From assembly GCA_040769065.1 (NCBI GenBank), contig JAXGLU010000001.1, positions 1,991,218-2,055,217 on the forward strand: a DNA stretch of 64,000 nt, read 5' to 3'. This DNA is from Bacteroidales bacterium (GTDB lineage: Bacteria > Bacteroidota > Bacteroidia > Bacteroidales > VadinHA17). A model generated the notes under the pieces. The model made no database searches and was not told the DNA's origin. It worked only from the letters and a program-made list of their open reading frames with translations. Position numbers and translations under genes: made by a program. This document shows positions 31,604-38,558 of this stretch, piece by piece. The first letter of the stretch is position 1; the number at the start of each line of letters is the position of its first letter.

Positions 31604-31676
31604 TGCTCCGTGGTGTAATTGGCAACACGTCTGACTCTGGATCAGAAAAGTTCAGGTTCGAGCCCTGACGGAGCAA
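31604..31676 (+). tRNA. tRNA-Gln (anticodon CTG)
   Basis: Hand-folded cloverleaf: acceptor tgctccg/cggagca, D arm gtgt-aattggca-acac, anticodon arm tctga-ctCTGga-tcaga, variable aaagt, T arm tcagg-ttcgagc-cctga, discriminator a. Confidence 0.9.
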
Positions 31677-31677
31677 C
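31633..31677 (+). repeat. attL: 45-bp direct repeat (3' half of tRNA-Gln)
   Basis: 'gactctggatcagaaaagttcaggttcgagccctgacggagcaac' is identical to 38404-38448. Confidence 0.9.
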
Positions 31678-31685
31678 AACATTAT

Positions 31686-31727
31686 AAGCCACTTGCGGCA
31701 GTTAAATGTTCAGTGGCTTTTTTTATT
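31686..31727 (+). terminator. Rho-independent terminator for tRNA-Gln, supplied by the island
   Basis: 'aagccact-tgcggcagttaaatgttc-agtggctt' followed by a T8 run. Confidence 0.65.
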
Positions 31728-31744
31728 TGCATACGATTTGCATA
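31726..31744 (+). promoter_or_regulatory. Pair of TTTGCATA 8-mers, 11-bp period (candidate integrase arm-type sites, left end)
   Basis: 'TTTGCATAcgaTTTGCATA' recurs identically at 38267-38285. Confidence 0.4.
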
Positions 31745-31782
31745 AAAATGAGGGCTATTTTGAAAATTGAGGATAAAAGAGT

Positions 31783-32007
31783 TTAATAATTCTCGTATTC
31801 TTCAGCCGTAATCTCGACAGGTTCCTCAAAGGTTTCGCACACCAGATCGGTTTTCCTTTCAATCGGGTATTCCCTGCCTCCTTTATACTTTGCCTTGTAA
31901 TTTGTCGTTCCTGGAATAACTTTGATCGCGGTTGAGTAAAATTCATTCAACAGGTAAACCGTCTTGCCTTCCTGCAATTTCTTTACTATGTCGTCATAAG
32001 TGGTCAT
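31783..32007 (-). CDS. Small island protein, paralog 2 (74 aa, ends EEYENY)
   Basis: About 50% identical by eye to the adjacent 76-aa ORF. Both share 'TVYLLNE(L/F)Y..AIK.IPGT.NY.AK.KGG.EYPI' and the C-terminal 'EEYENY'. Confidence 0.6.
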   Translation of the reverse strand: MTTYDDIVKKLQEGKTVYLLNEFYSTAIKVIPGTTNYKAKYKGGREYPIERKTDLVCETFEEPVEITAEEYENY

Positions 32008-32027
32008 AATGCAATATGAATAACGGC

Positions 32028-32258
32028 TTAATAGTTTTCGTATTCTTCTTTTGTCATGATAACAGCATCTGTTAATGCTTCATATACTATCTCTGCACCG
32101 CTATTTATAGGGTATTCTTCTCCGCCTTTTATTTTTGCAATATAATTAGCTGTTCCAGGGATAAACTTAATTGCTATTTCATATAATTCATTTAGCAAAT
32201 AAACAGTCTCTCCCTTGTCAAGTAGGTGGTACACTTCCTTATAAGTACTTTTTCTCAT
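32028..32258 (-). CDS. Small island protein, paralog 1 (76 aa, ends EEYENY)
   Basis: See the paralog at 31783-32007. Conservation between tandem duplicates supports coding. Confidence 0.6.
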   Translation of the reverse strand: MRKSTYKEVYHLLDKGETVYLLNELYEIAIKFIPGTANYIAKIKGGEEYPINSGAEIVYEALTDAVIMTKEEYENY

Positions 32259-32442
32259 TTGGCCTTTATATTACTAAGTTAATAAAAATTCTTTTGAAGT
32301 TTTACTGAAAATTTAGTAAAACGGTGGGTGGATTCAATTATCTAGGGAATGCTGTGCTTTAAATGTGCGAAATTGCACATATGACATTTGCAATAAGATG
32401 TCATCCGTTCGGCATATTTGCCCAACGGGCTCCTCTCCTTGA

Positions 32443-32464
32443 ATCTCCACAAAATTGTGGAGAT
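32443..32464 (-). terminator. 9-bp stem hairpin 5 nt downstream of the 32469-32690 stop (no U tract)
   Basis: 'atctccaca-aaat-tgtggagat'. A terminator role is inferred from position only. Confidence 0.3.
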
Positions 32465-32468
32465 CAGC

Positions 32469-32690
32469 TCATTTTTGAGCAGACCCGGTTCTTGATAGCA
32501 TCAATTCGGTGAGTGCTTTTTCGGCCTGTCCACACAGCACGACATTTGCACCCCCGGAAGCCATCAGTAACCCCGTGAACGCTTCTCCCCTCTCACTGCA
32601 AATGACCGGGTTAGGTGGAATATCCGCCGGATCAATCAGGCCTGCCTCAATATCCCTAAGTAGCTGAATCTTATCTTTTTTGGTGTTCAT
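32469..32690 (-). CDS. Island hypothetical protein (73 aa)
   Basis: Its ATG overlaps the terS stop by 4 nt (ATGA coupling). Confidence 0.5.
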   Translation of the reverse strand: MNTKKDKIQLLRDIEAGLIDPADIPPNPVICSERGEAFTGLLMASGGANVVLCGQAEKALTELMLSRTGSAQK

Positions 32691-33193
32691 TTCTTGTTAG
32701 TAATTCGGTTAATAATTGCATCCAGTGTTGTTTCATCAAGTCGGTCGAGGTTGACGTCAAGCGCCTGCGGACTCTCAAATCCCAATATTCGGCAAATTCG
32801 TTCGGTTGTCCAGGCTTTTCCGTGCAACTTTAACTCAATCCCATGCCGAGTCTGTCGGATGCCTTCTACGGCCTTTATTTGGCTTTCTGGGAGGTCTGCA
32901 AAATCCTTGAATTGAATTTTTTTCCCATCGAAGTTCAGATAATCGGTAATTTTTGCCCGCAAGATGCTCGCTAGTTCCGCAAGTATTTCATCCTTAGTGA
33001 TATCAGTTCGTTTTCTTGCTTCTGTCTGAAGTTGCTGTAAAAATTGCTGCACCTTAACTAAACTTAACAACCTGGACGCTTGAAATTCTGCAGTGCGGGC
33101 CGAATAACCGGCCCGAATTGCGGCCTGCTTTCCGTTGAGGTCAAGAAGAAACTGCTGGCAAAACGCCTTCTGTTTTGGCGTTAATCGGCTCAT
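32687..33193 (-). CDS. terS: Phage terminase small subunit (Terminase_2/P27 type)
   Basis: 'LTPKQKAFCQQFLLDLNGKQAAIRAGYSARTAEFQASRLLSLVKVQQFL' is the canonical N-terminal HTH of this family. Confidence 0.85.
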   Translation of the reverse strand: MSRLTPKQKAFCQQFLLDLNGKQAAIRAGYSARTAEFQASRLLSLVKVQQFLQQLQTEARKRTDITKDEILAELASILRAKITDYLNFDGKKIQFKDFADLPESQIKAVEGIRQTRHGIELKLHGKAWTTERICRILGFESPQALDVNLDRLDETTLDAIINRITNKK

Positions 33194-33195
33194 AT

Positions 33196-33432
33196 TTAAT
33201 GGTTTATATCTCTCATTTCATTAATGAAGTCGTCTTCCTCATTATTTCCTTCCCCAGGTTGGTCAGCTTGACCAGTGGTGTTAATCTCTGCCATCGTCTT
33301 TATAAATTCATCTTCCGCCTCTTTTGCCGGATCCGGTGGCTCCTTCTCCGGGTTTTCGAGTTTCTTCATGCGTTCCTCAAAATTTTCGAGGTGTTTTTGG
33401 GCCCATTCTGGAATTTTTTCTTCAGCACTCAT
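33196..33432 (-). CDS. Island acidic protein (78 aa)
   Basis: Its ATG overlaps the upstream stop by 4 nt, and the sequence is E/D-rich. Function unknown. Confidence 0.45.
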   Translation of the reverse strand: MSAEEKIPEWAQKHLENFEERMKKLENPEKEPPDPAKEAEDEFIKTMAEINTTGQADQPGEGNNEEDDFINEMRDINH

Positions 33433-34061
33433 TTCACTAATTGTTGATAATCATTATATTTACTTGGGAAAAAGCTAGTTTCATCGAAATCAATCAGGTC
33501 AAATACATCTAATTGGCTCGTTTTGTCTTTAAAATTTGACCCCAAATTCGCCCAGAAGGTCGTTAATGCTTCACACGCCTTTTGAAGTTGTTCATACAGT
33601 GAGCGTTGTTCTTCTGTTTCTATTATGCTGCTGCATTCCTCCCGGATCAAATTCCAGGTTGAATCTGGAATACTGAAAACGCCGTCAATCAGATCATACC
33701 TATCCAGGGGAGTTGGAATATTAAATGGCGGTCGCCCCTTATTATGTTCAAACTCTGAAATCAGGGCCATTGCCTTTTCTTGGAATTCAGCTATTCGCTT
33801 GGCGGCCAGATCATCAAAAACCTCTGCCATCACGGGGTTCAATTTCCCCTTGAATGACTTCTTCAAAGCCTGCCGCAAATGCTCCTCGATCGTTTCAAAG
33901 TGCCTTTCCATGATTTGATCTAAAGTCATGCGATCTATTGGGCCTAGGCCTAAGGAAGCAAACAGGGCACCGATTTTGCGCAAGGTTTCAAGGTTTGCCT
34001 GATATATCCTTCGCCTCTCGCCGAACGCCACTTCATCAAAAAACAAAATTTCTTTTTCCAT
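33429..34061 (-). CDS. Island hypothetical protein (210 aa)
   Basis: Long ORF in the co-directional island gene run. No motif recognised. Confidence 0.55.
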   Translation of the reverse strand: MEKEILFFDEVAFGERRRIYQANLETLRKIGALFASLGLGPIDRMTLDQIMERHFETIEEHLRQALKKSFKGKLNPVMAEVFDDLAAKRIAEFQEKAMALISEFEHNKGRPPFNIPTPLDRYDLIDGVFSIPDSTWNLIREECSSIIETEEQRSLYEQLQKACEALTTFWANLGSNFKDKTSQLDVFDLIDFDETSFFPSKYNDYQQLVK

Positions 34062-34117
34062 ATTCTATAAAACTGTTAGATTTATTTGACCAAAAATATT
34101 TTTCATTATGTTCTTGA

Positions 34118-35476
34118 TTAATTGATAGATACAGGGATTGTAACATCATATTGTATTATACAGTTTTCACTTACTTCATTCTCTCTATCATCAACTCTAT
34201 AATTCTCAATAACTATTTTGGGTGAAAATCCAACAAATTTTGTAAGTTCTTCGCACATAATTTTGCGGACGGCTTCCACCTCATCAGTGAGTATGCCCGT
34301 CATTATGGAATCATGAATACTTATCGCCACCACCCCCGGCAACTCCCTGTAAATTCTTTTAAGGATTACGTCAATTACTAAAAAACTCTCAATGGTTGCC
34401 AGCAGGATGGCAAATCTGTTGCTGTTTTTAAAACTGGTTCCCTGATCTCTCCCCCTAACTTTTGAAAAAACCCTGTGAACGGTCGGAAAACTCTTCTTAA
34501 AAATCATGCGGCATTTCCTGTTTACTTCATCTTTCGGCATTCTGTTGGGAGCAAATAAGATTCTTAATAGCTGAACTTTCGTTTCATCACGGGTTAGAAT
34601 TATCCCTTCCACGGCAAATTTTTGCATCAGGTATTCGTAAAGATTCCCGCAAATCACAAGCGAAATATATTTTTTTACATCATCCTTGTTTACAGATATT
34701 TTCAATGTTTGTAACAACATTTGAAAAGCAGGATTTTTTGCAAGGTGTGCGACCTTGGCGGGATACGTCAGAATAATAGTGCTGAGGTATGGTTGGCTGT
34801 TTTTTATATCAATGTTTGTGAGCGGTTTTCCGTTTACCCTGAGATATGACCTCAGTTCTTTTTTCATGTTAGTCACATTACTGTGAAACCGCCTTTCCGT
34901 GGCATCCCGTGAGTGCGTCCAGTCTTTGTTTACAATACGCATGGCAGAAGATAGGACTGAGTTGTAAACTTCCGTGTTGTCTTTATAGCTTTCAACCAGT
35001 TCCCGCCATCCATCGGCAAGCGTTAACTGTCGAATATACTTCACTTGTGGGGCGCACCCCCAAATCAATTTTATTGATTGCTTGCTCATCTCGGCATAAG
35101 CATTGCGGATCCTCCTTATGAGCTTGTTGTTTTTCAGGGGCAGGATGATATATTTACTTTGGTAGTCCTGTGTGAAGGTGTACCTGTAACTTACTTGTCC
35201 TGGAATGTAGTTAGGTGATCTTTTAATAACCTGAAGCTCTATTAAACCGGCCAGATACCTTTCGGCATAAGGCACCAATCGTCTCAGATACTCCATTCGT
35301 AGCGGGGGATCTTCATCATCCTTGCGTACATTACAGGCAACTATTGAAATAACCTCTTTCAGATAGTCAGAATTGTAACCTTTTATCTCCGCTGATAATA
35401 GTTTTTCTATTACCGGAAGATTCTGAATAACTTTTTCAGGAATTAACTGATAATATTTTCCCCCTTCAGCGTTCAT
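34118..35476 (-). CDS. 452-aa protein with T7-like/family-A polymerase motifs A, B and C (candidate compact polymerase or replicase)
   Basis: By-eye motifs are D191-ATERR, 'PLTNID223IKNS227QPYLSTIIL', 'R296DETK300VQLLRILF308A' and 'SIH388D389SIMT', in the canonical order. See findings. Confidence 0.4.
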   Translation of the reverse strand: MNAEGGKYYQLIPEKVIQNLPVIEKLLSAEIKGYNSDYLKEVISIVACNVRKDDEDPPLRMEYLRRLVPYAERYLAGLIELQVIKRSPNYIPGQVSYRYTFTQDYQSKYIILPLKNNKLIRRIRNAYAEMSKQSIKLIWGCAPQVKYIRQLTLADGWRELVESYKDNTEVYNSVLSSAMRIVNKDWTHSRDATERRFHSNVTNMKKELRSYLRVNGKPLTNIDIKNSQPYLSTIILTYPAKVAHLAKNPAFQMLLQTLKISVNKDDVKKYISLVICGNLYEYLMQKFAVEGIILTRDETKVQLLRILFAPNRMPKDEVNRKCRMIFKKSFPTVHRVFSKVRGRDQGTSFKNSNRFAILLATIESFLVIDVILKRIYRELPGVVAISIHDSIMTGILTDEVEAVRKIMCEELTKFVGFSPKIVIENYRVDDRENEVSENCIIQYDVTIPVSIN

Positions 35477-35706
35477 TAATTGTTCAGAATTGCGTTCACC
35501 GACCCAAGAGAAATATTTAATTGTTCGGCTATTTCCCGCTGACTTAGCCCCTTATCCCTTAATTTTCTTACCATGAACCTTGCCGGATCTGCTTTTTTCT
35601 CCCAATAGGCAGCATTATATTTCTTGATTAAGTCAGGATTCTTCCGCCGGTACTGCCGTTGATACTCGTTCCTTAATTGTCTTGCTTTTTCTGATAACAT
35701 TTTCAA
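35476..35706 (-). CDS. Small HTH protein (76 aa)
   Basis: C-terminal 'GLSQREIAEQLNISLGSVNAIL' is a sigma-70 region 4/LuxR-like HTH. The stop overlaps the next ATG (TAATG). The 5' end overlaps the nuclease ORF by 74 nt, so the true start may be internal. Confidence 0.55.
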   Translation of the reverse strand: MKMLSEKARQLRNEYQRQYRRKNPDLIKKYNAAYWEKKADPARFMVRKLRDKGLSQREIAEQLNISLGSVNAILNN

Positions 35707-36010
35707 TGAGTTTTATAAAATCCTGAAATTTCATCGCCACCACTGCCCCGGTATTATTCTTTTTGTGAATTACCAGGTTAATTTTGCTGTTCTGGGGCAT
35801 CTTGCAGTTAAGAATTTCATGATAGCCAGGCGACAGACGTTCCACATGTTTGCACTGAATTTGAAAATCTCCGGTGCCAGTCAGATCAATACCATTATAA
35901 TCATCCCAGGCACTTCCCATAAATCGTGAGGTGTAGCACTCTGGCCAGATAGCTCTTAAAATGCTTGCACATTCACGTTCCCACCGGTTGCCTTTTCGCT
36001 TAGAATTCAT
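35633..36010 (-). CDS. PD-(D/E)XK nuclease, Holliday-junction-resolvase-like
   Basis: 'KGNRWERECASIL' followed by 'NGIDLTGTGDFQIQCKHVE' gives an E...D...QxK arrangement, as in Hjc/RecB-like phage nucleases. Confidence 0.5.
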   Translation of the reverse strand: MNSKRKGNRWERECASILRAIWPECYTSRFMGSAWDDYNGIDLTGTGDFQIQCKHVERLSPGYHEILNCKMPQNSKINLVIHKKNNTGAVVAMKFQDFIKLIENVIRKSKTIKERVSTAVPAEES

Positions 36011-36018
36011 TGCCTGTT

Positions 36019-36327
36019 TTATTTAAGGTAAGAATCAGCGTTTTCCTTCATTTCCTGCCTTGTCGCATATCTCCCGGCTTTCAGGTATGCTATCAGCTCA
36101 TCGGTGGAAAAGTATAGACGCCCGCTCCTTTTCATGAAAGGAATTTCCTTTTTTGAAACTTTTGTGTAAAGTGTCGGGACGGTCAGATCTAGGAATTCGG
36201 ATGCTTCCTTAACATTAAGAATTCTTTCGGCCTCAGGATTTCCCGGTATGGGATGCTTCAGGTCGAGCAAAAGAGTTTCAATGCTCTCAAGCTTTGCATT
36301 AATAAAATCAAAAGGGTTTGTCATCAT
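36019..36327 (-). CDS. Excisionase-type HTH (HTH_17/MerR-like) DNA-binding protein
   Basis: 'LNVKEASEFLDLTVPTLYTKVSKKEIPFMKRSGRLYFSTDELIAYL' is the pattern common in Bacteroidota integrative elements. Confidence 0.75.
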   Translation of the reverse strand: MMTNPFDFINAKLESIETLLLDLKHPIPGNPEAERILNVKEASEFLDLTVPTLYTKVSKKEIPFMKRSGRLYFSTDELIAYLKAGRYATRQEMKENADSYLK

Positions 36328-36365
36328 TGCTTTTTTTCTGCAATGATAGACTTAGTGATAGGCTG

Positions 36366-36385
36366 TTACCGGTAATTACCGGTAA
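36366..36385. promoter_or_regulatory. Two abutting perfect palindromes TTACCGGTAA-TTACCGGTAA (candidate operator)
   Basis: Lies in the 63-bp gap between the 201-aa ORF and the Xis-type HTH gene. Each 10-mer is its own reverse complement. Confidence 0.5.
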
Positions 36386-36390
36386 TTATT

Positions 36391-36996
36391 TTAATAGTGG
36401 ATTCTTTTTAGGCTTTCAAGCTCTGCAGTTGCCCTGTTAATAGCAGCCTCAGATTTTAACAATGGGACAACACTTTCAAATAATTTTGTTTTCTCTTTTA
36501 ACCTGCGGGCTGTGCCGGGATCACCTGTGCGGTCAATCGATTTGGCGTATTTAAGATATGTGCTATACAATTTTTCACCACTTGTCAGACCGTAAGCTTT
36601 GACTATTTTATCCCCGTTTTGGCGGGTAATCTGAATCCCTTCATAAATATGGATTAATACAACCTGCTTCACAGTTAAGCCTGTTCTCTTTGGCTCTGAG
36701 AATTTCAAATTCCCGTTATCTTCAAGGAAGGTTTTTATTTCACTAATTAATAGCTCTATTCTTCTAATCTTAGAGGCTATCGGTTGAATCGTTGGACTCC
36801 CTTTGTAAGGTTCTAGTTCGGTTAACCAATATAGAAGTTTTTGACGGCATTCTTTTAAATGCTCAATGTCCTTGGCGGCCATGGCCTCACGTGTTTTATA
36901 CTTAATATCTTGCAAGACTTTATTAAGCTCAAGTTCGGCCGGCACATTCCTGGCTGTATTAATAAAATCATCTAACGTCTTAAATGTTTTCCTCAT
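36391..36996 (-). CDS. Island hypothetical protein (201 aa)
   Basis: Starts at the integrase stop. No motif recognised. Confidence 0.55.
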   Translation of the reverse strand: MRKTFKTLDDFINTARNVPAELELNKVLQDIKYKTREAMAAKDIEHLKECRQKLLYWLTELEPYKGSPTIQPIASKIRRIELLISEIKTFLEDNGNLKFSEPKRTGLTVKQVVLIHIYEGIQITRQNGDKIVKAYGLTSGEKLYSTYLKYAKSIDRTGDPGTARRLKEKTKLFESVVPLLKSEAAINRATAELESLKRIHY

Positions 36997-36997
36997 A

Positions 36998-38254
36998 TCA
37001 GTTAAAATCCATTAGCGTTTCAGCAAATTCTTTTTTACTCTGATCATCAAAACCGGCAAAATACGCCTGCGTGGTGGTAATATTATTGTGGCCCAAAGCT
37101 TCGCTAACGAATTCCATTGAGACCCCGCTCCGGATGGCAGTTGTGGCGTATGAATGCCTGGCCGTGTAAAATGATATGGTTTCCGGCAGACCGTTAACCT
37201 TGCAGATATGCTTTAAACTTTGATTCAGCATGCTGAGAAACGCAATTATCTTTTTACGCTGTACCTCAGCTGACTGATCGGCCCGGATTATGTCAAAAAT
37301 AAAGTTTTCCGGCGTTATATCAGGGGTGCCGTATTTCTGAATTACCTGTTTGGCAAAGTCATTCAAATAAACTGTAATTGCCTTTTGATTGCCTTTACTT
37401 GTGAGTCGGGTCTTTGCCCGGACAAATGTCAGTCGGTCATCCTGAATGTCTCTGTAGCGCAAATATGCCAGGTCTTTTAAATTGATGCCTGAACAGGAGA
37501 ATGACAGGAAGAAAAAATCTTTTGCTTTCTCCTGCCAAGGGGTTGAGGTAGGGGCATCAAATAACTGTTTTAATTCTTCTTTGCTCAGGGCTTTTTTTAC
37601 TTTCCTGGTTCGGGGAATTTCATATTTGAGGAACGGGTAAAAATCCTTACTGATTTCACCTTCATTAATTGCCCGATTATATACCGCCCTCAACGTTCTC
37701 GCATAAATCCCGACAGTTGTAAGACTGCGCTTTTTTGATGCTTGAACAGTCAAATAATGCTCAAAATCAGTCAGCCACTTAACCGTAATGTCGTAAAATG
37801 TCAGATTTTCATATTTAGTATTTCTACTTTCTGAGAATTCGCGAATGGCCTTTTCTGTAAGGTCGTAGCTGCTGGCACTTCCAAAACGTTCATATTTTTT
37901 CAGTTCCTTTATTACTTGCTGGAATTGGTATTGAAGCCTTATCCCGGCCCCAGCTTTGCGGTAAATTTTCTTTTCAAAGGTTTCTATATTAAACGGCTGT
38001 ATTTGCTTGGCTATTTCATTTGCCCGTCCTACAAGTGCCTGCATTTCAGCCCGTGTCTCCTTATATTTTTTTCTGGGCTTAGTTGTTAACCATGTGGCGG
38101 AAAATTCATCTTCTGAAAACTCAAATTTAGTTGCGAACAGCTTTTGACTTTTTATTGGCAACTGGGTATAGACCCGAAGTTTTACCGGAAATTTCCCGCT
38201 TTTTAATTTTCGGCGAGGATCAAGCCACAAACTAATCTCATAGTCTCTTTTCAT
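36998..38254 (-). CDS. int: Tyrosine recombinase/integrase (Bacteroidota phage-integrase type)
   Basis: 'TARHSYATTAIRSGVSMEFVSEALGHNNITTTQAYF' carries the R..H..R..Y catalytic box, and an N-terminal arm-binding/SAM-like region is present. The start was moved to 'MKRDYEISLW' (ATG 38252-38254). Confidence 0.9.
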   Translation of the reverse strand: MKRDYEISLWLDPRRKLKSGKFPVKLRVYTQLPIKSQKLFATKFEFSEDEFSATWLTTKPRKKYKETRAEMQALVGRANEIAKQIQPFNIETFEKKIYRKAGAGIRLQYQFQQVIKELKKYERFGSASSYDLTEKAIREFSESRNTKYENLTFYDITVKWLTDFEHYLTVQASKKRSLTTVGIYARTLRAVYNRAINEGEISKDFYPFLKYEIPRTRKVKKALSKEELKQLFDAPTSTPWQEKAKDFFFLSFSCSGINLKDLAYLRYRDIQDDRLTFVRAKTRLTSKGNQKAITVYLNDFAKQVIQKYGTPDITPENFIFDIIRADQSAEVQRKKIIAFLSMLNQSLKHICKVNGLPETISFYTARHSYATTAIRSGVSMEFVSEALGHNNITTTQAYFAGFDDQSKKEFAETLMDFN

Positions 38255-38266
38255 TGTTACTATGAA

Positions 38267-38285
38267 TTTGCATACGATTTGCATA
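38267..38285 (+). promoter_or_regulatory. Pair of TTTGCATA 8-mers (candidate arm-type sites, right end), 13 nt upstream of int start
   Basis: 'TTTGCATAcgaTTTGCATA' is identical to 31726-31744. Confidence 0.4.
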
Positions 38286-38403
38286 CAAAATAACAAAATA
38301 TACATATAACAAACAAGCAAAGAGTTTTGTTTTTAAAACATAACTATTATATTTACAAAGGATTCTAACAAATAACAATAAATAAAGAATAAGCGACTTT
38401 TAA

Positions 38404-38448
38404 GACTCTGGATCAGAAAAGTTCAGGTTCGAGCCCTGACGGAGCAAC
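38404..38448 (+). repeat. attR: 45-bp direct repeat of the tRNA-Gln 3' half
   Basis: Identical to 31633-31677. Confidence 0.9.
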
Positions 38449-38452
38449 CAGA

Positions 38453-38477
38453 TGCCGGTTATTTAGCCGGCATTTTT
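38453..38477 (+). terminator. Terminator-like hairpin in the 72-bp spacer between attR and a third partial att copy
   Basis: 'tgccgg-ttatttag-ccggca' followed by a T5 run. Confidence 0.4.
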
Positions 38478-38520
38478 CTTTGCGACGACAGGGCGAGAAG
38501 TTTACCCCCACGAAGGAGGG

Positions 38521-38558
38521 GAGCCCTGACGGAGCAATAACATTATAAGCCACTTATC
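38521..38558 (+). repeat. Third, partial copy of the tRNA-Gln 3' end (17 bp) plus ~20 bp resembling the region just downstream of the tRNA
   Basis: 'gagccctgacggagcaaTaacattataagccactt' compares with 31661-31697 'gagccctgacggagcaaCaacattataagccactt'. A hairpin and T run follow at 38550-38584. Confidence 0.7.

Follow-up and report, generated by a model that had tools for sequence, protein, structure and literature searches.

The catalogued families of phage satellites come almost entirely from Proteobacteria and Firmicutes (PMC10085698). Among them, phage-inducible chromosomal islands (PICIs) and capsid-forming PICIs (cfPICIs) join a compact backbone of integrase, regulator and replicase to scattered genes for head or packaging functions and to cargo of a defence-like kind (PMC10085698). 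The integrative mobile elements encapsidated in virions (VEIMEs), recovered from marine virions, have sizes between <5 kb and 16.8 kb, in most cases possess tyrosine integrases, AlpA-type regulators and excisionases, lack a major capsid gene and occur integrated in Flavobacteria among other taxa (PMC9618062). Some VEIMEs (module 6) carry genes for a terminase small subunit (TerS) and a DNA polymerase, others for HNH proteins and serine proteases (PMC9618062). VEIME DNA is packed into capsids of full size in the form of concatemers (Eppley et al. 2022, PMC9618062). Together with the minimalist chromosomal islands inducible by phages (PICMIs), VEIMEs are examples of satellites of very small size whose packaged form is a concatemer (PMC9618062; PMC10803314). 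Here we describe a 6.8-kb island inserted at a tRNA-Gln gene of a Bacteroidales bacterium (assembly GCA_040769065.1). It lies in a 64,000-nt stretch of contig JAXGLU010000001.1 (positions 1,991,218 to 2,055,217), which we call the window and to which all island coordinates below refer. We consider it fairly likely that this island is a helper-dependent phage satellite, PICI-like in its working and resembling the small marine VEIMEs. Its dependence on a helper phage is inferred.

A further group of elements is relevant to this locus by its polymerase. The TV-Pols are minimal stand-alone family-A-like polymerases of 400–600 aa without nuclease domains, predicted to be primase and polymerase in one; some of them have an N-terminal helical domain and are associated with integrases of the lambda type in mobile elements of bacteria, among them some from Bacteroidetes (PMC2579912). 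These elements were noted in 2008, without a link to phage packaging (Iyer, Abhiman & Aravind, PMC2579912). Related enzymes are known from staphylococcal cassette chromosome (SCC) elements: the A-family enzymes of the CcPol type in SCCmec act as primases with a partner similar to single-strand DNA-binding proteins (bioRxiv 10.1101/2022.12.02.518924).

Comparison of the island with described elements

Between its terminal repeats, the island contains 12 substantial open reading frames (ORFs), all intact, tightly packed and on the minus strand (Table 1). An initial annotation of the window, made from the letters, had correctly placed all ORFs on this strand and had counted 13 of them, a number that its own list reduces to 12. 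We searched the ORFs against profile libraries, with Pfam and PHROGs covering most of them and NCBIfam and PADLOC ten each. In these libraries no family for a terminase large subunit (TerL), portal, capsid, tail, lysis, relaxase or defence function was matched, in agreement with the initial annotation, which had found no virion, lysis or relaxase genes. Six of the ORFs (o73, o74, o76, o78, o201 and o210) had no family match in the libraries searched. Pfam, PHROGs and NCBIfam also gave no holin or connector gene and no primase or helicase family among the island ORFs, and PADLOC gave no meaningful defence match. A tiny prophage was rejected as an interpretation: 6.8 kb with 12 ORFs, none of them structural, cannot encode a virion.

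Table 1 Features of the island and its borders, given from left to right in window coordinates.
Feature	Position	Strand	Basis or remark
Intact tRNA-Gln(CTG), integration target	31604..31677	+	ARAGORN, Rfam; its 3′ 45 nt are the attL core
attL core, 45-bp exact direct repeat (tRNA nucleotides 30-74)	31633..31677	.	Repeat search
Tandem ATTTGCATA, two copies, candidate P′ arm site for integrase/Xis	31725..31744	+	48 nt inward of attL
o74, 74-aa protein, last gene before attL	31783..32007	-	o76 paralogue
o76, 76-aa protein, o74 paralogue	32028..32258	-	No match in Pfam, PHROGs, NCBIfam or PADLOC
Hairpin-rich non-coding gap, 210 nt, four stem-loops	32259..32468	-	Folding compared with shuffles
o73, 73-aa TerS partner	32469..32690	-	Overlaps TerS stop by 4 nt; conserved with TerS
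Stand-alone terminase small subunit (TerS, Terminase_2)	32687..33193	-	PF03592 E=3.9e-35; phrog_51 E=1e-33
o78, 78-aa TerS partner	33196..33432	-	Just upstream of TerS; conserved with TerS
o210, divergent member of a ~210-aa helical family (Y210)	33429..34061	-	hhalign
p452, compact family-A (TV-Pol-like) polymerase without exonuclease domain, family hallmark	34118..35476	-	AF2 model, Foldseek, motifs
HTH76, small helix-turn-helix protein	35476..35706	-	HTH_24 E=1e-6; stop overlaps p452 start
PD-(D/E)XK nuclease	35633..36010	-	PDDEXK_15 26.4 bits (cut-off 27); phrog_244 E=4e-16
HTH_17 (MerR/excisionase/AlpA-like) backbone protein	36019..36327	-	PF12728 E=5e-11; phrog_66 'excisionase and transcriptional regulator'
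Tandem palindromes TTACCGGTAA, two copies, candidate operator	36366..36385	.	~40 nt upstream of HTH_17 start
o201, 201-aa orphan, hypervariable slot flanked by integrase and HTH_17	36391..36996	-	No family match
Tyrosine integrase, N-terminal SAM-like domain (Phage_int_SAM_5)	36998..38320	-	PF13102 E=4e-17; PF00589 E=3e-14
Tandem ATTTGCATA, two copies, candidate P-arm site and/or int promoter element	38266..38285	+	12-31 nt upstream of integrase ATG
attR core, second copy of the 45-bp repeat	38404..38448	.	Repeat search
72-nt spacer with its own terminator hairpin, then third partial att	38449..38555	.	Repeat search, sequence

The layout recalls that of a PICI. An integrase at one end, a candidate regulator of the AlpA/MerR/excisionase type, a replication module and a lone TerS are read in one direction, with accessory slots beside the integrase and after terS and without tail, holin or portal genes. 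Of the five core components in the PICI definition of SatelliteFinder (PMC10085698), the island matches three by function: integrase, TerS and a plausible regulator. The position expected for the regulator is held by the HTH_17 protein, where Pfam reported no Phage_AlpA. The island differs from PICIs in its replicase, a TV-Pol-like polymerase that is an analogue and not a homologue of the Pri-Rep primase-helicase, and in having no gene for capsid morphogenesis or packaging interference recognisable by Pfam or PHROGs. It is also smaller (6.8 kb vs a PICI median of 9.5 kb) and resides in a Bacteroidota host, whereas >99.9% of detected PICIs are in Proteobacteria or Firmicutes (PMC10085698). The island is thus not a PICI by membership, since replicase homology and capsid morphogenesis fail. 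The satellite reading in the initial annotation is supported in part: the anatomy stands (integrase, regulator, replication gene, lone TerS, no virion genes), and the PICI-like organisation does not amount to PICI membership.

Among known systems, the island resembles VEIMEs most. Like them it is a small integrative element (6,771 bp, measured from repeat start to repeat start) with a tyrosine integrase and without a major capsid gene. VEIMEs are defined by their presence in virions, whereas the island is known here from its genes; the hosts of its family are represented by Bacteroidales metagenome-assembled genomes (MAGs), whereas VEIMEs stem from marine plankton; and the link through the polymerase consists of a structural match to ~400-aa 'uncultured marine phage' polymerases only. 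The PICMIs of Vibrionaceae (PMC10803314) are likewise minimalist, with concatemer packaging, no capsid remodelling and a core of integrase, AlpA-type regulator and replication protein. They differ from the island in integrating next to fis and not in a tRNA gene, in that their three core proteins serve excision and replication with TerS not among the features listed for them, and in having virulent phages as helpers and hosts from another phylum.

With the elements that combine a TV-Pol and an integrase, the island shares a stand-alone, integrase-linked polymerase without a nuclease domain, here of 452 aa (p452) (PMC2579912). Those elements have been taken as replicative transposons or SCC-type islands, not as satellites, and an association with TerS or head genes has not been described for them (PMC2579912; bioRxiv 10.1101/2022.12.02.518924). 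Unlike in TV-Pol and SCCmec elements, no helicase or OB-fold partner was recognised beside p452. Bacteroidota also harbour the nonreplicating Bacteroides units (NBUs), islands of roughly 10 kb in tRNA 3′ ends with integrases related to that of the island. In the latter, no Mob relaxase or oriT module was found; it has a TerS instead.

TerS belongs to a conserved cassette

The initial annotation had called a Terminase_2-type TerS, and the failure of this call in profile searches had been set beforehand as a refutation of its reading. The protein yielded a strong, full-length Terminase_2 match. In related loci (numbered with the prefix L), o73 was found alongside TerS in L033-37, L120-125, L127 and L130, and o78 in L033-37, L120-123 and L127. 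The ratios of nonsynonymous to synonymous substitution rates (dN/dS), calculated against island homologues, were 0.12-0.15 for TerS, 0.25 for o78 and 0.30-0.35 for o73, and all three genes are under purifying selection. The whole cassette, o210-o78-TerS-o73, accompanies a polymerase homologue in L033-35 (TerS 73% identical), persists in a remnant disrupted by an insertion sequence (L036-37, 61%) and also resides in islands with other genes in place of the polymerase (L120, 93%; L127, 89%).

None of the TerS homologues with ≥54% identity was followed by TerL in the contexts inspected. At ~45% identity or below the homologues were mixed, some belonging to islands and some to real phages. The phages (L038, L136-140 and L147) possess replication genes and a Terminase_3 TerL directly after TerS. 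From these contexts, the island TerS appears to represent an island-specific clade, the nearest phage relatives of which use a packaging pair of Terminase_2 and Terminase_3. Because the phages carrying the nearest TerS relatives have a Terminase_3-type TerL, a phage with this packaging pair would most likely be the type of helper.

Upstream of o78 lies o210, whose family matched cluster 1 (Y210) with an hhalign probability of 97.4% (E=1e-11). In many related islands a Y210 gene comes after the polymerase, and 17 of the 48 informative loci, defined as non-redundant loci with ≥2.5 kb after the polymerase, possess one. Y210 also adjoins more distant TerS genes in small IMG/VR contigs. A homologue search with o210 gave three sequences, and its AlphaFold (AF2) model, with a predicted local distance difference test score (pLDDT) of 54, was too poor to use.

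A second TerS (P0125), 92% identical to that of the island, is presumably encoded on the same 3,356,042-bp contig. This suggests a second related island (probably), or a helper phage, elsewhere in the genome. Some small TerS-bearing islands furthermore contain one giant gene. Its product has 1,369 aa and a tape-measure domain (TMP_3) in L120 (5599-9708), and 1,079 aa and a minor-tail domain (PhageMin_Tail) in L126 (4535-7774); an unannotated ORF of 1,332 aa occupies the same position in L129 (9735-13733). There are no other tail genes beside the giant gene in these three islands. A role in tail length or tail interference is possible.

p452 resembles compact family-A polymerases

By sequence, p452 was matched neither in Pfam, PHROGs, NCBIfam and PADLOC nor, with the single protein or a profile as query, in PDB. 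It has hundreds of unnamed homologues, mostly in Bacteroidales MAGs, and among 1.84 billion representative proteins its profile gave 5,086 hits at E≤1e-3, including 504 at E≤1e-30. Ten distant members of this family were without a Pfam hit. No Pfam, PHROG or NCBIfam model exists for the family, and its kinship to family A is visible only in structure and motifs.

The AF2 model of p452, built from 30 homologues, reached a pLDDT of 82.8 and a predicted template modelling score (pTM) of 0.78. Searched with Foldseek against the PDB, it matched only family-A DNA polymerases (KlenTaq, T7 DNA polymerase, apicoplast polymerase), with a probability of 1.0, E-values of about 1e-4 and TM-scores that were low, as expected for multi-domain enzymes. 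The best matches among viral models were two proteins of ~400 aa with TM-scores of 0.65-0.74, one of them recorded as 'putative DNA polymerase I [uncultured marine phage]'. Compact matches of lower strength (~300 columns, root-mean-square deviation of 6-8 Å) were to virophage replication proteins, e.g., that of Zamilon.

Invariant among the 30 homologues are R196, D223 within DIKNSQ (compare DYSQIE), R296, K300 and H388-D389 (compare HDE). The series R296...K300...F308 corresponds to RxxxKxxxF, and R196 lies just ahead of the palm. These residues were assigned to motifs A, B and C by pattern, not by residue-level structural alignment. Judged by modelled structure and motif pattern, p452 is a compact TV-Pol-like family-A polymerase with a core of thumb, palm and fingers and intact catalytic motifs, which bears out its earlier description as polymerase-like. 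It would most plausibly be the replicase/primase of the island.

Distant homologues with 25-29% identity were seen in metagenomic 'uncultured phage' records of 595-735 kb (LR756511.1, LR756504.1, LR745206.1, LR756501.1) and on two Hymenobacter plasmids (NZ_CP060788.1, NZ_CP094674.1).

Related islands form a mobile family in Bacteroidales

The p452 alignment retrieved 23 loci from species-representative genomes, one from a Melioribacteraceae bin and 22 from Bacteroidota, mostly Bacteroidales and also Rikenellaceae, Prolixibacteraceae and Bacteroidaceae. A metagenome search for relatives gave 113 hits, of which 80 were fetched. After deduplication, at least 98 non-redundant loci, nearly all from Bacteroidales MAGs, share the arrangement integrase-HTH_17-polymerase. 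The general order of the backbone is integrase, a hypervariable gene, HTH_17, optional small genes (PD-(D/E)XK, HNH), polymerase and a variable region. The cluster that includes the island HTH_17 protein has members in 61 related loci.

About 35 of the polymerase loci hold a tRNA gene, in most cases on the strand opposite to the polymerase and 2.4-9 kb downstream of it. In a few it lies upstream instead, before the integrase (L004, L008, L033/L035, L074). The tRNAs targeted across the family include those for Ala, Met, Pro, Arg, Val, Asp, Gly, Lys and Cys. In 18 loci, a repeat of 14-49 bp of the 3′ part of the tRNA is found at the other end, defining units of 6.5-12 kb. Two independent contigs, of about 6.9 and 8.0 kb, are circular as judged by terminal overlap. 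In one of them, L011, a 46-bp segment of the non-coding region before the integrase repeats nucleotides 31-76 of tRNA-Pro(TGG) exactly, and this tRNA is the insertion site of other family members. The segment is an attP, a close parallel to the 45-bp tRNA-Gln core of the island. The circular contigs and the L011 attP imply that the family excises and circularises, which makes the interpretation as decayed remnants very unlikely.

Thirty of the 48 informative loci carry at least one isolated gene of the head or packaging type, and none comes near a full virion module. Most frequent is DUF5681 (23/48), which directly precedes and overlaps TerL in L003. The others are an HNH endonuclease (4/48; phrog_99 E=7e-29), a Terminase_2 TerS (2/48), a TerL (2/48; phrog_2 E=2e-23, related to phage Terminase_3 TerL at 2e-41), a prohead protease S78 (2/48; E=6e-31) and an HK97 major capsid protein (1/48; PF05065 E=1e-37). 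By analogy with known satellites, such stray head or packaging genes on a compact backbone would be the pattern expected of satellites. The relatives recall cfPICIs by their HK97 capsid (L006), prohead protease (L012, L074), HNH and TerL plus DUF5681 genes (L003, L081). They differ in having one or two such genes each, not the full set of capsid, portal, connector, TerS and TerL, and the island in the window has none of these genes except TerS.

In the 7.2-kb member L003 (12325-13927; the same island as L026 and L027), the DUF5681 protein overlaps the start of the island's own TerL, and L081 is a second member with TerL plus a DUF5681 gene. DUF5681, the commonest accessory gene, may be an unrecognised type of small terminase; its function is not given in the sole paper found.

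The slot between integrase and HTH_17 (36391-36996 in the window) is occupied across relatives by many unrelated clusters of 150-330 aa, which would fit a fast-evolving immunity, sensor or defence gene. The o201 protein in this slot had no family match in the libraries and is unrelated to all protein clusters at the same position in relatives. Relatives also carry phage regulators (Rha-like, anti-repressor, KilA-N). Defence-like or unusual cargo was seen at L012 14764-15975, L028 10988-14288, L030 10533-11621 and L033 11328-12308; the cargo includes a TIR/SEFIR protein (L012), RadC plus an HD-domain protein, and a ClpP/SppA-like SDH_protease, the gene of which recurs in two different related islands.

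Borders and attachment sites of the island

The sole tRNA gene in the window, identified by ARAGORN and Rfam (RF00005, 64 bits), is the tRNA-Gln(CTG) at the left border. As reported in the initial annotation, a perfect 45-bp repeat of its 3′ part brackets the island; the two copies are an exact 45-mer, and the match breaks at base 46. Two further features of the borders had not been recorded before. One is a tandem pair of ATTTGCATA with 11-bp spacing near both island ends. Four of the six matches to this motif in the window are at these two ends, with 1.6 expected in the whole 64 kb. In the excised circle the pairs would flank the att core like the arm-type sites of attP, and we regard them as candidates for such sites.

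The other feature lies outside attR. At 38521-38555 there is a third, partial att copy, which shares 97% identity with 31660-31694 and consists of 17 nt of the tRNA 3′ end followed by a stretch in which 17 of 18 nt match the left end of the island (31678-31695). In the simplest reading, the tRNA originally ended here, followed by the sequence native to its downstream side, and the attP of the island resembles this stretch. The 72-nt spacer between attR and this copy is probably the scar of an earlier insertion.

The GC content of the island is indistinguishable from that of its flanks, so composition is uninformative here. The flanks consist of housekeeping genes (FolB, an ECF sigma factor, TonB-dependent receptors, glycoside hydrolases, peptidases). 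The window had no match to TerL, capsid or protease seeds from the related islands.

Further genes and signals

Profiles from Pfam and PHROGs upheld the gene calls made from the letters for the integrase, the Xis-type HTH, the PD-(D/E)XK nuclease, the small HTH and Terminase_2. Equally, the tight junctions were confirmed, with overlaps of 4 nt between o210 and o78 (33429-33432) and between TerS and o73 (32687-32690) and of 1 nt between HTH76 and p452 (35476); the integrase and o201, as well as o78 and TerS, are spaced by 1-2 nt. The integrase ORF as listed opens with TTG. An ATG at 38254 (MKRDYEISLW), which had been missed, is a better start and likely the true one.

The palindrome TTACCGGTAA has three exact copies in the 64 kb, and the two adjacent ones form the tandem operator-like site that had been noticed before. 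The pair is a candidate operator. Based on its profile matches, the HTH_17 protein downstream is presumed to be an excisionase and/or activator. Homologues of the nuclease are present in L004 and L006, and those of HTH76 sit ahead of the polymerase in L001 and L033. When called from their first start codons, the nuclease and HTH76 ORFs overlap by 74 nt (35633-35706). The nuclease homologues in L004 and L006 are ~20 aa shorter than the island protein, and the C-terminal extension of the nuclease or the start of HTH76 may be mis-called.

At the distal end, o74 and o76 share 55% identity and are thus the two paralogous ORFs of about 75 aa described earlier; homologues of o74 occur at the distal end of L033/L034 and of L127. 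The 210-nt gap before o73 deserved its description as hairpin-rich: its minimum free energy of -33.6 kcal/mol compares with -17.3±3.2 kcal/mol for shuffled sequences (z=-5.1), and none of 200 shuffles folded as well. It is a candidate for a terminator combined with a promoter, origin or packaging (pac) region. After the o73 homologues of L120 and L033 there is no gap of this kind.

Proposed life cycle and alternative explanations

We propose the following working model for the island as a satellite. Helper infection or induction would relieve control at the TTACCGGTAA operator and switch on the single minus-strand gene array. The integrase and the HTH_17 protein would then excise a 6.77-kb circle, with the ATTTGCATA pairs as arm sites. 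The polymerase would prime and copy this circle and yield concatemers, perhaps assisted by HTH76, the nuclease and o210. The island TerS, with o78 and o73, would bind island DNA and divert the TerL of the helper, likely of the Terminase_3 type. Multimers would most likely be packaged headful into full-size helper capsids; packaging of concatemers, the route shown for VEIMEs (PMC9618062) and PICMIs (PMC10803314), is likeliest because 6.8 kb amounts to ~1/6 of the genome of a 40-kb phage and a gene for capsid resizing is not visible. After injection, the DNA would recircularise and integrate at tRNA-Gln. The satellite reading is strengthened by the existence of a mobile, tRNA-targeting family, by its circular forms, by the isolated head or packaging genes and by the conservation of the TerS cassette outside phages.

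Extending this model to the relatives is more tentative. They may constitute a widespread, unnamed family of Bacteroidota satellites that unites an integrase, HTH_17 and a self-priming mini family-A polymerase with interchangeable single hijack genes, namely Terminase_2 TerS (with o78 and o73), DUF5681, TerL, HK97 capsid, prohead protease or HNH. Its members would parasitise different steps of head assembly or packaging, and the smallest would travel as concatemers in unmodified helper capsids.

Several observations weigh against the satellite reading. A TerS of the Pfam type occurs in just 2 of the 48 informative polymerase loci, and 18 of the 48, including the circular contig L089, have no recognisable packaging gene, which implies that the backbone can exist without a hijack module. 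The case for DUF5681 as a TerS analogue comes only from its position upstream of TerL in L003. No p452 relative was found in IMG/VR; one island with the TerS cassette (L127) was, and IMG/VR consists of predictions, not of virion DNA. A pac site, an origin and a phage-sensing regulator were not identified in the island, and a helper phage is absent from the 64-kb window. Finally, an exact-pattern scan of metagenome and viral contigs for the 45-bp core followed by the island-side or chromosome-side flank, which covers attP, attB, attL and attR, did not find the island attP or the empty attB.

These points fit, in part, an alternative that we regard as unlikely, in which the island is a self-replicating integrative element, i.e., an integrative plasmid or replicative island with TV-Pol and integrase. 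Its phage genes would be passengers or would have other DNA-binding roles, for example in replication initiation, partition or, as a defence, interference with phage packaging. The conserved backbone is indeed integrase-HTH_17-polymerase, the packaging genes are variable and missing from the 18 loci mentioned above, TV-Pol plus integrase elements were earlier taken as replicative transposons (PMC2579912), and distant polymerase homologues reside on Hymenobacter plasmids. However, passengers would not come so consistently from head and packaging functions, which are among the few phage categories found more than once in 132 downstream cluster representatives. The TerS cassette is under purifying selection across different island backbones, and a 6.8-kb element that has no transfer genes would require some vehicle to arrive at so many hosts and tRNA sites. 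The island could also be an integrative mobilisable element of the NBU type, moved by a co-resident conjugative element through an unrecognised oriT and/or a relaxase encoded by o201 or o210. NBU1 and NBU2 share with it the Bacteroidota host, the insertion in a tRNA 3′ end and an integrase with a SAM-like domain, here Phage_int_SAM_5, and the island has two ORFs of ~200 aa without assignment. NBUs are cited as mobilisable elements (PMC11389934). Against this reading, families of relaxases, Mob and coupling proteins and type IV secretion had no match among the island ORFs in Pfam, PHROGs or NCBIfam. The top families of the 132 downstream proteins of relatives include head or packaging proteins and no Mob, and TerS plays no part in conjugation. 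We therefore rate an NBU-type element as improbable.

Least probable of all is a decayed prophage that has lost its structural genes. The phage-type integrase, the excisionase-like HTH protein, the PD-(D/E)XK nuclease, TerS and the scar of an earlier insertion beside attR would agree with such an origin. Decay is contradicted by the exact 45-bp att repeats, by 12 intact and tightly packed ORFs and by genes under purifying selection. Many genomes show the same compact architecture of 6.5-12 kb at a large number of tRNA sites, relatives occur as circles, and blastn of the island found no DNA similarity to deposited phages. A helper-dependent satellite remains the explanation that we favour, and we regard the island as a well-supported satellite candidate with a ready comparative series, whose dependence on a helper is inferred.

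Implications

The initial annotation had considered a Bacteroidota satellite worth describing as new. The bias of the catalogued families toward Proteobacteria and Firmicutes on which this was based is real (PMC10085698), and the novelty is tempered by VEIMEs (PMC9618062) and by the TV-Pol plus integrase elements (PMC2579912). The literature searched gave us no account of a satellite family in Bacteroidales, and the phylum goes unmentioned in the SatelliteFinder survey (PMC10085698).

The replicase of the island differs in kind from the primase-helicases of known satellites. Annotating its polymerase family, which comprises 5,086 representative clusters and is absent from Pfam, would provide a practical marker for such elements. 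One and the same backbone with different single head or packaging genes would offer a natural series for finding out how little suffices to hijack a tailed phage. Satellites influence the dynamics between phages and their hosts, disseminate defence genes and skew virus counts. If our reading is true, a satellite family of Bacteroidales would be a missing player in those communities.

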